64,000 nt of DNA. It comes from Escherichia coli (GTDB lineage: Bacteria > Pseudomonadota > Gammaproteobacteria > Enterobacterales > Enterobacteriaceae). The DNA lies in assembly GCF_003334355.1 (NCBI RefSeq), contig NZ_QOWP01000007.1; one strand, given 5' to 3'. A program made the position numbers and the translations under genes. The stretch's first letter is position 1. Each line of letters starts with the position of its first letter. The notes under the pieces were generated by a model that was not told the origin of the DNA, made no database searches, and saw only the letters and a list, made by a program, of their open reading frames with translations. Below, piece by piece: positions 50,780 to 57,275 of the stretch.

Positions 50780-50927
50780 TGTAAACCTCCTGTATTTGCC
50801 GGAGACTCACGCTGAAACGTCGGATGGCGCTTATGTTCACCTGAAACCGAAACACTCCTGTGCAGGTCAGTGTAAACATTGACCATCCGGCAATGTGAGC
50901 CAACCGGATGAAAGCTGTCCCTTTAGT

Positions 50928-51344
50928 TTAGCTAAGTGCAGCGGCTTTGGCGCGAATTGCGCGAATTATCGCTTCCAGACCTTGTGAACGAGATGGGGTG
51001 AGATGTTGGGTGAGCGCCATTTTTTCAAACCACGGACGCACATCGAAACTGACAATATCCTGCGGCGTCATCTGATCGTAGAGAATAAAGACGACCGCAA
51101 TAAGCCCTTTCACAATCGCCGCATCGCTGTCGCCCTGCAATTCAATAATTCCCTGCGCATTCTGGCGCATGACAATCCACACCTGACTCTGGCAGCCCTG
51201 AATGCTATTTTGTGGGCTTCGGTCTTCGTCGCGTAATTCTGGCAGACGCTGGCCCAGCTCAATAATGTAGAGATATTTCTCTTCCCAGTTGGCGCAGCGT
51301 AAAAAATTACGCAGCAATTTTTCTTTATCCGGCAATACAGCCAT
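50928..51344 (-). CDS. sufE: Sulfur acceptor SufE (138 aa)
   Basis: Track ORF; last gene of suf operon. Confidence 0.92.
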
Positions 51345-51356
51345 AGTGCCTCCCTG

Positions 51357-52577
51357 TTATCCCAGCAGACGGTGAATACGTTGCAATCCGGTCACCAGAC
51401 GATCCACTTCTTCATGGGTGTTATACATGGCCAGCGACGCCCGACACATCGCAGAGACGTTGTAATAGGCCATCAATGGCATTGCGCAGTGATGTCCGGT
51501 ACGCACAGCAATGCCGTAATTATCGAGAAAACTGCCAACATCATAGGCGTGGTGTTTACCGAGATTAAAAGCAATAACGCCAAGCCTGTTTTGTGGGCCA
51601 TAGAGAGTGAGATCCGGTACAGATTCCAGCTGTGATAGCGCATAATGCATCAGATTCTGTTCATACTCGGCTATGTTATTAAGCCCCAGCGCCGAAACAT
51701 ACTCCAGCGCCGCGCCAAGACCAATGATGCCCCCGGTATTGGGTGTACCGGCTTCAAACCGCCATGGTGCTTTGGTCCAGGTAGTGCCTTCACTCAGGCT
51801 GACGGTGGCGATCATAGAACCGCCCCCTTCCCACGGCGGCATCTCCTGCAACAAGGCTTCTTTGACATAAAGAATGCCAATTCCGGTGGGGCCATACAGT
51901 TTATGCCCGGAGAACACGTAAAAGTCGCAATCCAGCGCCTGAACATCCACCAGATGATGCATCACCGCCTGAGCGCCATCCACCAGCACTTTTGCGCCAT
52001 GCTGGTGCGCAAGCGTGATCATTTCCGCCAGTGGATTTTCTGTGCCAAGCACGTTGGAGACATGAGTAATTGCCAGCAGGCGAGTTTTCTCATCAAACAG
52101 CGTAGGCAGCGTCTCCAGTTGCAACGTACCGTCGGGATTGAGCGGGATCACACGCAGCTCTGCGCCAACGCGTGCGCAAAGCATCTGCCAGGGAACAATG
52201 TTAGCGTGGTGCTCCATCTGACTTATGATGATGTTATCGCCCGCCCGCACGTTGCTGTTGCCCCAGCTATTGGCGACCAGATTGATCCCTTCCGTCGTGC
52301 CGCGGACGAACACCAGCTCTTCCGCCGAACGGGCGTTGATAAACAACGATGCCTGCTTGCGTACGTTCTCCATTTTCTCGGTCGCCTGGGCGCTTAAGGT
52401 ATGAATACCGCGATGCACCGCCGCGTAGCCGTGACGATAAAACTCGGCCTCGGCGTCAATCACCTGGCCCGGTTTCTGCGCACTGGCGGCGCTGTCGAGA
52501 TAAGCCAGCGGCAAACCGTTTACCTCACGAGAAAGCACCGGAAAGTCGGCCCGCACTTTGTCGACGGAAAAAGTCAT
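51357..52577 (-). CDS. sufS: Cysteine desulfurase SufS (406 aa)
   Basis: Track ORF; class II aminotransferase-like PLP enzyme sequence. Confidence 0.93.
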
Positions 52578-53845
52578 CTTACACCTCCTGGCAGTCGTTG
52601 ACCGATTCGGGCCAGCACCTGCTGTTTAAGCCCCTCATCACGCAGTGCTTCCGTCAGTTCAGCAGCAAAGGCGTAAATGATCATCTGCTGGGCATCCTGC
52701 TGATTGATCCCGCGCGAGCGCAGATAGAACATCTGTTCATCATCAATACGCCCCACCGTCGCGCCGTGGCTGCATTTCACATCATCTGCATAGATTTCCA
52801 GCTGCGGTTTCGTATCCACTTCCGCCAGTTTGCCCATCAGCAGATTATTGTTGGTCATCTGACCATCCGTTTTGATGGCGTGCTGCGCGACGTTGATCAA
52901 ACCGTTAAATACCGCGCGGCCTTTGTCGCTGACGATAGTTTTGTGCAACTGTCGGCTGTTACAAAAACCTTTATTGTGTTCCAGCCAGGTGCGGGTATCA
53001 CACACCTCGTTTTTCACCGGCATCGCCAGGCTATTGATCCGCAGCGTGCTGTTTTCGCCATTGAGTTGCGTACTGGTGTTGTGTCGTAACACTGCGCCAC
53101 CCAGCAGGAAACTATGGCTAAATGCGGTGGCATCGTCAGCCAGCAACAAATCGTTATGGGCAAAGTGGTGACTGACCGGGTTTTCAAACGCCAGCTTGAT
53201 ATGCTGCAAGTGGGCGTTCGCTGCGACATTGATAGTGAACCGTGCGCCGGTGAAGTGACGAGCATCATTAAGGCTGACAAAATGTTCGATCACCGTTGCT
53301 TCGGCACCTTCCGCCAGATCCAGATGATGTCGGTAATGGGCAGTGTTGACCTCTTCACCTGCCACGCCCTGGGTAATATGCATTAACAGCAATGGCTTTG
53401 CCGGCCGTTGACCGCGCTTCACGGCGATATGCGTCACGCTTTGTGCCAGGCTTTCCGTCAAATGCAGAAACACTTCCGCCTGAATAGCGTCGGGTACCCC
53501 CTGACGGTCGTCGTTAATGCTCACTTCATACCCGCTGCCTTCAGTCGCATCGCTCAGTGCTGACACGTAACGTCCATCGACAAAAACCAGCCGCACAGCG
53601 TCTAATGTTAACGCTAAGGCATCACGCTGCTGTGGGGATATCTCTCCCGCAATGCTGACAAACTGGCTATTGGTCAGCCCTTCCAGCGGCGTATATTTCC
53701 AGTTTTCATGTTTACGTGTCGGCAGTCCGGTACGCAGCAATTGTTGTAAATGCTGCTGTGCTTGCGGAGAGCGTTTCGCTCCGTCAGCTTCAAACAAGTG
53801 ATGCCACTGTTGCAGCGCGTTACTGCTGTTCGGTAAGCCAGCCAT
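52574..53845 (-). CDS. sufD: Fe-S cluster assembly protein SufD (423 aa)
   Basis: Track ORF; 4-bp overlap with sufS start. Confidence 0.92.
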
Positions 53846-54566
53846 AACCCTGCTCCTCCAGTTGTTTGACCAACGTGAAATCGCCGGATTTCACAATTCG
53901 TCCCTGATACAGCACATGGACGTAATCAGGCTTGATGTAGTCGAGAATGCGTTGGTAGTGCGTAACAATGATGAATGAACGCTTGCCGTCACGCAGCGAG
54001 TTCACGCCATCGGCAACCACTTTTAATGCGTCAATATCCAGCCCGGAGTCTGACTCATCAAGAATGCATAACTCCGGTTCCAGCACCGCCATTTGCAAAA
54101 TATCGTTGCGCTTTTTCTCGCCGCCGGAAAAACCAACGTTTACCGAACGGGTTAATAAATCTTCCGGCATCTTCAGGAGAGCGATTTTCTCTTCCATCAA
54201 ATCCTGAAAATCAAAGCGGTCGAGCGTTTCCTGGCCGCGATAGCTGCGCACCGCATTAAGTGCCGTTTGCAGGAAAAACTGGTTACTGACGCCGGGAATT
54301 TCCACCGGATACTGTAAGGCCATAAAGATGCCTTCGCCCGCGCGATCTTCCGGCGACAGCGCAAGCAAATCTTTGCCTTTGAACTCAACCGTGCCGCCCG
54401 TCACTTCATAATCTTCTCGCCCGGCAAGCGTTGCCGATAAGGTACTTTTGCCCGAACCGTTTGGCCCCATAATGGCGTGAACTTCGCCGGGATGAACGTC
54501 GAGGCTTAATCCGCGCAGGATAGCTTTATCTTCCACGCTGACGTGTAAATCTTTAATACTTAACAT
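53820..54566 (-). CDS. sufC: Fe-S cluster assembly ATPase SufC (248 aa)
   Basis: Track ORF; Walker A GPNGSGKST; ABC signature region; 26-bp overlap with sufD start. Confidence 0.94.
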   Translation of the reverse strand: MLSIKDLHVSVEDKAILRGLSLDVHPGEVHAIMGPNGSGKSTLSATLAGREDYEVTGGTVEFKGKDLLALSPEDRAGEGIFMALQYPVEIPGVSNQFFLQTALNAVRSYRGQETLDRFDFQDLMEEKIALLKMPEDLLTRSVNVGFSGGEKKRNDILQMAVLEPELCILDESDSGLDIDALKVVADGVNSLRDGKRSFIIVTHYQRILDYIKPDYVHVLYQGRIVKSGDFTLVKQLEEQGYGWLTEQQ

Positions 54567-54575
54567 GTTTATTCC

Positions 54576-56063
54576 TTATCCGACGCTGTGTTCAAGACTG
54601 ATGGCGAGGAGTTTTTGTGCTTCAACGGCAAATTCCAACGGCAGCTCCGAGAACACGTCTTTGCAGAAACCGTTAACAATCATCGAGATGGCGTCTTCTT
54701 CGCTGATCCCGCGTTGCAGGCAGTAAAACAGTTGATCTTCACCAATACGTGATGTCGTTGCCTCGTGTTCCAGTTGCGCACTATTGTTACGACACTCAAC
54801 ATACGGGAAGGTATGCGCCCCACAATTAGCGCCAATCAGCATTGAGTCGCACTGAGTGAAATTGCGCGCATTGGTTGCCGTCGGCATGATTTTCACTAAG
54901 CCGCGATAACTGTTCTGACTATGTCCGGCAGAGATCCCTTTCGAGATAATGGTCGATTTGGTGTTTTTACCGATGTGGATCATCTTGGTGCCGGTATCCG
55001 CTTGCTGATGACCGCTGGTCAGCGCCACTGAGTAAAACTCACCAATGGAGTTATCGCCGCGCAAAATGCAGCTGGGATATTTCCACGTAATCGCTGACCC
55101 GGTTTCTGATTGCGTCCATGACATTTTGCTGTTTTCGCCTTCGCACAAAGCACGCTTGGTGACGAAGTTGAGAATACCGCCGGTGTTGTTATCGCCAGGG
55201 AACCAGTTTTGTACCGTGGAATATTTCACCTCGGCGTTTTTATGGATGATGACTTCCACCACTGCCGCGTGTAACTGATAGCTGTCACGCACCGGAGCGG
55301 AACAGCCTTCAATGTAGCTGACGTAGCTGTCTTCGTCGGCCACCAGAATGGTGCGCTCAAACTGCCCGGTTTTTTCCGCGTTAATGCGAAAATAGGTGGA
55401 AAGTTCCATAGGGCAGCGCACACCTTTAGGCACATAAATAAACGTACCGTCAGAGGCTACCGCCGCATTAAGCGCGGCAAAGAAGTTGTCATTCCCCGGT
55501 ACCACGGTGCCGAGATATTTACGCACCAGTTCCGGGTGATCGTGGATCGCCTCACCAAAGGAACAGAAAATAATTCCCTGCTCCGCCAGTTTTTCACGAT
55601 AAGTGGTGGCAACCGAAACAGAGTCGAAAATGGCATCCACCGCCACCTCTTTGCCTTCCCGCACGGGAACGCCCAACTGCTCAAACGCCGCCTCCACCTC
55701 TTTACTTAAAAAGGCGTTCGCGCCAGTTTGCTGCACCGCGCCGGGTTCAGACGCGCAAGTGTCGTCACAATTACCGCACGATGGTGCTGAGTAGTAGCTG
55801 TAATCCTGATAATTCAGCTTGTCGTAGTGCGCTTTCAGCCAGTGCGGCTCTTCCATCTCCAGCCATGCGCGATAGGCATTGAGACGAAACTCCAGCATCC
55901 ACTCCGGCTCATTACGCTTCGCCGAAATTGCGCGCACCACCTCTTCGTTTATCCCCTTTGCCAGCTCATCGGTGGCTAACTGGGTGAAGAATCCTTCTTT
56001 ATAATTCAGCGGGCCGCCGGTCCAGGTTTTGACATCGTCAGTTGCTTCAGTATTACGAGACAT
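54576..56063 (-). CDS. sufB: Fe-S cluster scaffold SufB (495 aa); track ORF trimmed to [10 protein letters not shown] start
   Basis: Recalled SufB N-terminus; track ORF 54576..56102 over-extended by 13 codons. Confidence 0.92.
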
Positions 56064-56071
56064 AGTACCGC

Positions 56072-56440
56072 CTATACCCCAAAGCTTTCGCCACAGCCAC
56101 ATTCATTCTGGGCTTTAGGGTTGTGAAATTTGAATATCTGATTAAGTCCTTCACGAACGAAATCGACTTCCGTGCCATCAATAAACGGCATCGCTTGCAG
56201 CGGGACAAACAGCTTCGCGCCGTCGTGTTCAAACAGCAGATCGTCTTTGTCCGGCTCGCTAACACTGTCGAGCACATAGCCAAAGCCCGCGCAGCCCGTT
56301 TGCTTCACGCCTAAGCGCACGCCGACCATACCTGGCTGCTTTGCCACCAGCTCGCGGATGTGTATCGCCGCTGCGGGTGTCAACGTTAAGCCTTGCCAGG
56401 CGAAATCTTGTGGGTTAAAGGTTCCTGAATGCATGTCCAT
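56072..56440 (-). CDS. sufA: A-type Fe-S carrier SufA (122 aa)
   Basis: Track ORF; C-terminal CGCGESF motif; first gene of suf operon. Confidence 0.93.
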
Positions 56441-56485
56441 CGATTTACCTCACTTCATCGCTTTCAGCGTATAACAGCATGTTAG

Positions 56486-56500
56486 TGATAATGATTATCA
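56486..56500. promoter_or_regulatory. Fur box in suf operon promoter region
   Basis: TGATAATGATTATCA near-palindrome about 45 bp upstream of sufA start; matches Fur consensus GATAATGATAATCATTATC. Confidence 0.75.
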
Positions 56501-56723
56501 GTTCAACCCAGCAAACGCAGGGGCTTTACCGTAAAACATGCTTTTTGCCTGCTTTTAATAAGCATAGACCCTGATGTGTGGGTTAACAGGCACGCTAAGA
56601 ATTAGGTATCTCATTGTTAGATAATGGTTATTATCTAAGGAGCATTAAGGCTGTGATGAAAAAGAAAAAGTTGTATTGAAAATGACTATTTAAGAGATAG
56701 GTAAAAAAGTGCAGCGTTCAGAA

Positions 56724-56800
56724 ATAAGAAAACCCTTAAGTCTGTGCGACACAGGCTTAAGGGTTTCTACCCCATCCGGCGCTTATCTCCGGCACTCTCA
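56724..56800 (-). ncRNA. rydB: Candidate small RNA (RydB-like) ending at a reverse-strand intrinsic terminator; boundaries approximate
   Basis: Hairpin CCCTTAAGTCTGTG/CACAGGCTTAAGGG at 56733-56763 preceded on + strand by A-run (T-run on - strand); recalled that sRNA RydB lies between sufA and ydiH; exact ends not determinable here. Confidence 0.35.
56726..56763 (-). terminator. Reverse-strand intrinsic terminator in sufA-ydiH intergenic region
   Basis: 14-bp stem (one G-U pair) with A-run on + strand 5' side, i.e. T-run after hairpin on - strand. Confidence 0.6.
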
Positions 56801-56987
56801 GTGGCTTAGCTCTTGAAGGGGCGATAAGAATAATCTCATAAAGCTAACCCGCCGTTTTAACACAAACTGCGATTAGTATTATTTTTGAACAATATCAGGC
56901 GGTAGATAAGCAGTATTAAGAAGGTCATCGAACCTGGACGGAGGTTAATCCAGGTCGATTTGGCGAACTTGCGGCATTAAGTCAGGA

Positions 56988-57176
56988 TCAATGCACGCCC
57001 AGACGCCAGGCAAAGTAGATTTCTTCTTTTAATTCAGCAGAAGAGAGAGTAAGCAGGTCAGCAAATTCAAGTTCTAGTTGTTTCAGACGTTTGAGATATT
57101 GGGCAGGTGAAAGATTGCTCTGGTCACGGCGTAAAAATTCAATGGCCAGCTGGGTGGGATCAAGTTGAGTAGACAT
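56988..57176 (-). CDS. ydiH: Small protein YdiH (62 aa); track ORF trimmed to MSTQLDPTQL start
   Basis: C-terminal 62 codons of track ORF 56988..57257 match recalled YdiH. Confidence 0.78.
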   Translation of the reverse strand: MSTQLDPTQLAIEFLRRDQSNLSPAQYLKRLKQLELEFADLLTLSSAELKEEIYFAWRLGVH

Positions 57177-57275
57177 AGCATCCTCGCTTTTAGACAAGAC
57201 CTGCACAGTATACCACCGTTTACTGTGCAGATAATGACCAAAAGCAATATGCGTCACACTTTTCTGGTGACAACG

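Follow-up and report, generated by a model that had tools for sequence, protein, structure and literature searches.

Intact sufABCDSE operon on an Escherichia coli contig: Fur-box promoter, overlapping junctions and two easily misannotated gene starts

The subject of this analysis is the sufABCDSE operon on the minus strand of a 64,000-nucleotide (nt) stretch of Escherichia coli DNA (contig NZ_QOWP01000007.1, assembly GCF_003334355.1; "the window" denotes this whole stretch), where its six genes and the Fur box of its promoter occupy positions 50928-56500. We are highly confident that the locus is the canonical E. coli sufABCDSE operon, which assembles iron-sulfur (Fe-S) clusters in response to stress, and that the account of its promoter and junctions given below holds as a whole. 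The operon, its regulation by Fur, IscR, OxyR with IHF, and RyhB, and its gene boundaries are already known and belong to textbook E. coli biology. Our additions are modest: evidence from synonymous sites for where sufD and sufB start, and a clade-specific 26-nt overlap of sufC and sufD. They provide clean comparative support for two starts that are prone to pipeline error, that of sufD within sufC and that of the 495-amino-acid (aa) SufB, and they have little importance beyond quality control.

The window is part of an E. coli chromosome. A 6-kb query spanning the operon found matches in 5,425 of 5,426 complete E. coli genomes. Strain PSS-12 matched best; it differs from the window at 5 of 9,001 nt across the suf locus and its 1.5-kb flanks. 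The RefSeq gene order, ydiJ-menI-ydiH-sufA-sufB-sufC-sufD-sufS-sufE-ldtE-lpp, is the same in PSS-12 and K-12 MG1655. The six suf genes are as follows.

56072-56440, minus strand: sufA, 122 aa, A-type Fe-S carrier; protein identical to that of K-12.
54576-56063, minus strand: sufB, 495 aa, scaffold subunit; protein identical to that of K-12.
53820-54566, minus strand: sufC, 248 aa, ABC-type ATPase; Walker A motif GPNGSGKST intact; carries the private change F84L.
52574-53845, minus strand: sufD, 423 aa, scaffold subunit.
51357-52577, minus strand: sufS, 406 aa, type II cysteine desulfurase.
50928-51344, minus strand: sufE, 138 aa, sulfur acceptor.

A preliminary description of the window had called this operon intact, and all of our comparisons agree. 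The genes lie in the order sufA-B-C-D-S-E on a single strand, all at full length; the six open reading frames (ORFs) contain no internal stops, have the K-12 lengths and share their boundaries with the RefSeq models of both PSS-12 and K-12. Successive genes are separated by 8 nt (A/B), 9 nt (B/C) and 12 nt (S/E) or overlap by 26 nt (C/D) and 4 nt (D/S, as ATGA), and all six genes have a Shine-Dalgarno sequence of their own. The residues that we take to be catalytic or ligand positions (SufS K226 and C364, SufE C51, SufA C50, C114 and C116, SufB C405 and E434, SufD H360, and Walker A of SufC) are all present, as expected of members of a SUF operon, with the caveat for SufC that F84L lies beside the Q-loop residue Gln85.

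The K-12 operon (b1684-b1679) matches that of the window in gene order, in all six protein lengths and at all five junctions. The SufA and SufB proteins are the same, as is a 547-nt region that includes the Fur box, the IscR site, the -35 element and rydB (100% identity). The two operons differ at about 1.6% of coding nucleotides, with amino-acid changes in SufD (10), SufS (5), SufE (3) and SufC (1). Operons of other Enterobacterales and of Vibrio (Citrobacter, Serratia, Yersinia, Pectobacterium, Photorhabdus, Vibrio) have the same six genes in the same order. They share with the window a sufD ATG placed inside the GYGW codons of sufC, a sufD/sufS junction that is mostly ATGA and, in most cases, the module of -35 element, Fur box and -10 element; they differ from it in a variable sufA-sufB spacer and, in many, in the lack of an upstream in-frame ATG for sufB.

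Of the two starts that we sought to support, that of sufD lies within the preceding gene. The 26-bp overlap of sufC and sufD reported in the preliminary description is exact by coordinates and is conserved across relatives. Two features define it.

53820-53845, minus strand: sufC/sufD overlap, 26 nt; the sufD ATG is formed by the sufC Tyr241 codon TAT and the G of Gly242.
53853-53859, minus strand: sufD Shine-Dalgarno sequence GGAGGAG, within sufC codons L236-E238, 7 nt before the ATG.

A scan with SufC, limited to one genome per species, yielded 80 loci, 40 of which have the full sufABCDSE order (38 Enterobacterales and 2 Vibrio). The sufD ATG falls at nucleotide 722 of sufC in all 38 Enterobacterales, and the sufC stop ends at nucleotide 747, giving a 26-nt overlap, in 37 of them. 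The remaining genome, that of the symbiont Candidatus Pantoea edessiphila, has a sufC stop ending at 738 and an overlap of 17 nt. Both Vibrio species use the same sufD ATG; their overlaps measure 26 and 23 nt. The sufD ATG and the GGAGGAG before it are thus retained in all 40 genomes. Many species have no other start codon between the in-frame stop that lies upstream and the conserved SufD body.

The codons that sufC uses in this segment provide a second line of evidence. Tyr241 is encoded by TAT in 39 of 39 sequences, whereas TAT makes up 58% of the other conserved Tyr columns of sufC. Glu237 is GAG in 39/39 and Glu238 is GAG in 35/37, against 33% GAG for Glu elsewhere in the gene. Gly242 is similarly fixed as GGC (38/39) and Leu244 as CTT (37/37). 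Near-zero synonymous entropy was found for only 6 of the 168 conserved degenerate codon columns of sufC, and 5 of those 6 fall in codons 234-244. Such frozen synonymous sites are the signature of a second reading frame together with a ribosome-binding site, so the overlap is real and selected.

The opposing view would place the SufD start downstream of the sufC stop, for instance at an in-frame TTG that E. coli does have 48 nt after the ATG, and would make the overlap an annotation artefact; in general experience, starts called within long out-of-frame overlaps are often wrong. That TTG, however, lacks conservation, and the ATG is the only start in the open frame of many species. Frozen synonymous sites make up the ATG, its Shine-Dalgarno motif and the M-A-G-L codons of sufD, and in most species the BLAST alignment of SufD begins at residue 1. 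We therefore rejected the TTG start and regard any such downstream start as extremely improbable. The chains of SufD in PDB entries 2ZU0, 5AWF and 1VH4 likewise comprise residues 1-423.

Outside the clade of Enterobacterales and Vibrio, the sufC/sufD junction takes a different form. In sufBCDS-type operons (Bacteroidota, Xanthomonadales, Thiotrichales and others), sufD comes directly after a sufC whose product is 62-70% identical, but in place of the 26-nt overlap the two genes share 4 nt (ATGA or GTGA) or 1 nt, or are separated by a short gap; the C-terminal GYGWL motif of SufC is absent, and sufA and sufE are often missing. Because the junctions outside the clade are short or gapped, the long overlap is a derived trait of the lineage of Enterobacterales and Vibrio that was sampled.

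The second start, that of sufB, is complicated by an additional ATG upstream.

56064-56102, minus strand: spurious 13-codon extension of sufB, overlapping the 3' end of sufA; the longest ORF that includes it is 508 aa.

This longest ORF begins at ATG 56102, 13 codons upstream of ATG 56063. The codons for Glu-Cys (GAA TGY) in the conserved C-terminal Cys motif of SufA create the upstream ATG, and it lacks a Shine-Dalgarno sequence. In relatives the corresponding codon is often GTG, is absent, or is split from sufB by an in-frame stop, while all 38 Enterobacterales have an ATG at the position that aligns with 56063 or next to it. This is the pattern of an over-extended model: an upstream start that has no ribosome-binding site and is not conserved, and a shorter start that is. 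The curated K-12 protein in RefSeq (NP_416198.2) has 495 aa, as does the SufB chain in the solved SufBCD complex (PDB 5AWF). The comparison of 40 genomes, RefSeq and the SufBCD structure together support a SufB of 495 aa initiated at ATG 56063.

One could still suppose that, in Escherichia and Citrobacter at least, a 508-aa SufB isoform is made from 56102. These genera and some others do have the ATG with an open frame, and the longer model has been deposited: a 508-aa SufB occurs on 15 contigs (a few older GenBank records), for example as AAZ88176.1 of Shigella sonnei Ss046, against at least 1,000 with the 495-aa form. These points are outweighed by the lack of a Shine-Dalgarno sequence, by the SufA Glu-Cys codons that account for the ATG, by the loss of the start, its replacement by GTG or its separation by a stop in many relatives, and by the use of 495 aa in both NP_416198.2 and the functional SufBCD structure. 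A real isoform from the unconserved upstream ATG was accordingly rejected, and we consider it very unlikely. The 508-aa ORF is a longest-ORF artefact that persists in some GenBank records. The preliminary description had called sufB over-extended by 13 codons; this is correct for any track built from longest ORFs (56102 rather than 56063) but does not apply to the RefSeq models, which already have 495 aa. A comparable over-extension is seen in the neighbouring ydiH (minus strand), whose longest ORF runs for 89 aa from a GTG (56988-57257), compared with 62 aa in RefSeq (56988-57176).

The 495-aa frame also serves to place a published regulatory footprint near the beginning of sufB.

56030-56057, minus strand: pairing site of the small RNA RyhB, sufB codons 3-12.

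A lead-acetate footprint of RyhB has been reported at +51 to +74 of a sufAB fragment starting at +366 (PMC12533949). On those coordinates it maps to 56057-56034, that is, to sufB codons 3-10. The duplex predicted at 56030-56057 is the best in the operon (-29.7 kcal/mol, compared with a median of -12.3 kcal/mol). These RNAduplex predictions used the single-stranded region of RyhB; full-length RyhB gave meaninglessly long duplexes. A second predicted RyhB site inside sufB, at 55673-55709 (minus strand), has nearly the same energy (-29.5 vs -29.7 kcal/mol) and may be a computational coincidence; the passages of PMC12533949 that were consulted make no mention of it.

Upstream of sufA, we assigned the following elements to the promoter PsufA.

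56486-56500, minus strand: Fur box TGATAATCATTATCA, spanning -28 to -14; a perfect 7-1-7 palindrome that fills the promoter spacer.
56501-56506, minus strand: -35 hexamer TTGAAC, read from the sequence and named in PMC8561392.
56502-56529 (approximate, estimated bounds), minus strand: IscR type II activator site, with the -35 inside its right half.
56479-56484, minus strand: putative -10 hexamer TAACAT, with a 16-bp spacer to the -35.
56472, minus strand: sufABCDSE transcription start (+1), back-calculated from published numbering; the sufA ATG lies 32 nt downstream.

The Fur box matches all 14 specified positions of the 15-bp 7-1-7 motif TGATAATnATTATCA. In a Fur motif scan of the 64-kb window, TGATAATCATTATCA was the sole match with zero mismatches, and about 5e-4 exact matches would be expected there by chance (128,000 positions x 4^-14). 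Judged by the classical 19-bp consensus GATAATGATAATCATTATC, the site agrees at 15-16 of 19 positions. The preliminary description had placed a near-consensus Fur box at 56486-56500, just upstream of sufA; the position was right, and "near-consensus" understates a 15-bp 7-1-7 match that is perfect.

The numbering of the promoter was anchored on published mutants. The Kiley laboratory has described a Fur-site mutant of PsufA altered at -26 ATA -24 and IscR-site mutants with a deletion of -56 to -51 or a change of -50C to G (PMC12594620). With +1 at 56472, -26 ATA -24 corresponds to 56498-56496 and -50 to the C at 56522. Because the published ATA and C fit the sequence only in this register, +1 was set at 56472, and the Fur box consequently spans -28 to -14. 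The -35 hexamer TTGAAC is embedded in the right half-site of IscR and sits one nt closer to the -10 than it does in PydiU (PMC8561392); this remark and the position of the transcription start point to TAACAT as the -10. The Fur operator overlaps the core promoter elements, since the box lies between the -35 (56506-56501) and the putative -10 (56484-56479). PsufA agrees with the promoter consensus at 8 of 12 positions, which explains both its dependence on activators and the failure of a generic promoter scan of the window to pick it up.

The 547-nt sufA-ydiH intergenic region is 100% identical to that of K-12, so published K-12 promoter data apply directly. Fur (as repressor), apo-IscR, OxyR with IHF far upstream (as activators), NsrR and RyhB are described as regulators of suf (PMC8593673 and PMC12533949). 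In vivo repression that depends on iron and Fur, and in vitro binding of Fur, have been published for the identical K-12 sequence and are cited in reviews and strain tables (PMC8593673, PMC12594620 and PMC12533949). Activation by IscR has likewise been demonstrated by experiment in K-12. An information-theory scan from 2007 predicted a Fur cluster at sufA -53 (PMC2189734). These secondary citations, together with the K-12 identity, support the identification of the TGATAATCATTATCA box as the experimentally characterised Fur operator of PsufA.

Conservation points in the same direction. A Fur box with 0-2 mismatches occupies the same place, adjoining TTGAAG and preceding CTAACAT or CTACCAT, in about 30 of the 40 species. 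The -35 reads TTGAAG or TTGAAC in most of the Enterobacterales sampled, and the -10 reads TAACAT or TACCAT in relatives. The TTGAAG / Fur box / CTAACAT module is kept in position in Escherichia, Citrobacter, Serratia, Yersinia, Photorhabdus and Arsenophonus. Erwinia, Pantoea and Pectobacterium differ in having their best Fur box at a much greater distance upstream of sufA. General caution demands that a consensus match not be taken as proof of function, and the box could in principle be an AT-rich palindrome that arose by chance and plays no part in regulation. Given the roughly 5e-4 exact matches expected in the window, the use of a Fur-site mutant of the identical K-12 promoter in published work (PMC12594620) and the positional conservation of the box between -35 and -10 in some 30 species, we give the idea of a chance match almost no credence.

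Published work and the layout of the sites give the following picture of regulation. PsufA is a single weak sigma-70 promoter, starting at about 56472 and driving sufABCDSE. When iron is sufficient, a dimer of iron-loaded Fur on the spacer palindrome between -35 and -10 blocks RNA polymerase; bound there, it directly adjoins the IscR activator site. Under iron scarcity or oxidative stress, Fur departs and polymerase is recruited by apo-IscR. OxyR with IHF provides additional activation from further upstream.

Two other Fur-like sequences were noted in the window. A box with 1 mismatch, TGATATTTATTATCA, lies at 46779-46793 between fumD and ydhY, some 250 nt upstream of the latter, and coincides with a Fur cluster predicted upstream of that gene (PMC2189734) once the published coordinates are shifted to the current K-12 record. 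At 56617-56638 (minus strand), about -145 to -166 of PsufA, there is a perfect 9-bp inverted repeat, TTAGATAAT-AACC-ATTATCTAA. It resembles two Fur half-sites separated by a 4-bp spacer in place of the 1-bp spacer and has 3 mismatches to the 15-mer. Both of the E. coli sequences that were sampled contain the repeat, and no comparable match was found in E. albertii or further relatives.

We also considered what the overlaps imply for translation. The sufD/sufS junction reads as follows.

52574-52577, minus strand: sufD stop and sufS start as ATGA, a 4-nt overlap; the sufS Shine-Dalgarno sequence AGGAGG lies at 52584-52589, 6 nt before the ATG.

The 4-bp overlap in the preliminary description is thus exact. 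Most Enterobacterales retain either ATGA or a 1-nt TAATG/TGATG overlap at this junction. At both pairs the downstream start lies within the end of the upstream gene, sufD/sufS through ATGA and sufC/sufD through a sufD ATG 26 nt before the sufC stop, as is expected of coupled genes. The preliminary description had called the overlaps consistent with translational coupling; the overlaps are real and conserved, and what they establish is consistency. Coupling at these junctions is plausible from the gene arrangement. The six genes are translated from one mRNA, whose very tight junctions would favour coupled translation, with sufD initiated at the ATG 26 nt inside sufC and sufS at the ATGA overlapping the sufD stop.

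The overlaps might instead reflect mere genome compaction, with sufD and sufS initiating independently and upstream translation having little effect. Both genes have strong, well-spaced Shine-Dalgarno sequences (GGAGGAG at 7 nt for sufD, AGGAGG at 6 nt for sufS), no significant structure covers the sufD ribosome-binding site, and a literature search for translational coupling in suf found no report. On the other hand, termination-reinitiation classically makes use of ATGA and 1-nt overlaps, and overlaps of these kinds are preserved across Enterobacterales and, between sufC and sufD, in other phyla. Independent initiation is a serious possibility, although we lean away from it; it is a rival of mechanism only, and the gene models are the same under either reading. 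Beyond compaction, the conserved 26-nt overlap could set the ratio of SufC to SufD synthesis, a suggestion that we regard as rather unlikely. Only a fraction of the ribosomes finishing sufC might, for example, step back to the sufD ATG and re-initiate there, in keeping with a SufB1C2D1 stoichiometry.

Several points weigh against the account of promoter and junctions as a whole. The RNA fold of the sufC/sufD junction (z-score -1.68) reveals no structure sequestering the sufD ribosome-binding site, so the junction offers no positive structural indication that coupling is obligatory. The SufB and SufD constructs in the PDB follow the annotation and so are not independent evidence for the starts, and a literature search for mapping of the SufB and SufD start sites by ribosome profiling or N-terminal sequencing found none. 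Finally, support for the assignment of the Fur operator comes from secondary citations and from the exact match of the sequence to that of K-12. A variant of the coupling proposal in which the sufD ribosome-binding site is masked until sufC has been translated was dropped, the fold z-score of -1.68 not being significant.

Comparison of the window with PSS-12 over the 9-kb stretch placed both private coding changes in suf genes. One is SufC F84L (TTC to TTA, position 54315), adjoining the Q-loop residue Gln85. A 41-mer carrying it occurs in none of the 5,426 complete E. coli genomes, whereas the TTC 41-mer matches 5,234, and Phe84 is invariant in 80 of 80 orthologues from many phyla. Either F84L is a genuine variant private to this strain, at a residue that is conserved universally, or it is a sequencing error. 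The other change, SufS P375S (position 51455), lies eleven residues after the active-site Cys364, and its allele is found in 1 of the 5,426 genomes. Since Ser occupies position 375 in 6 of 40 related sequences, the window included among the 6, the substitution is probably tolerated.

Several features flank or accompany the operon. The gene for the small RNA rydB lies between ydiH and sufA at 56762-56822 (minus strand; Rfam RF00118, 81.6 bits) and is annotated in K-12; an Rfam scan detected rydB only and no cis-regulatory RNA in the suf operon. Downstream, the 148-nt sufE-ldtE spacer (50780-50927, minus strand) contains hairpins, for example CAUCCGG...CCGGAUG at about 50910-50884, and has a fold z-score of -1.97. 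None of the hairpins in this spacer is accompanied by a T-run, and a terminator scan identified no canonical intrinsic terminator after sufE. On the plus strand, antisense ORFs of 250 and 246 aa lie at 51645-53089, opposite sufS and sufD; RefSeq does not annotate them, and most likely they are shadow ORFs cast by the coding strand.

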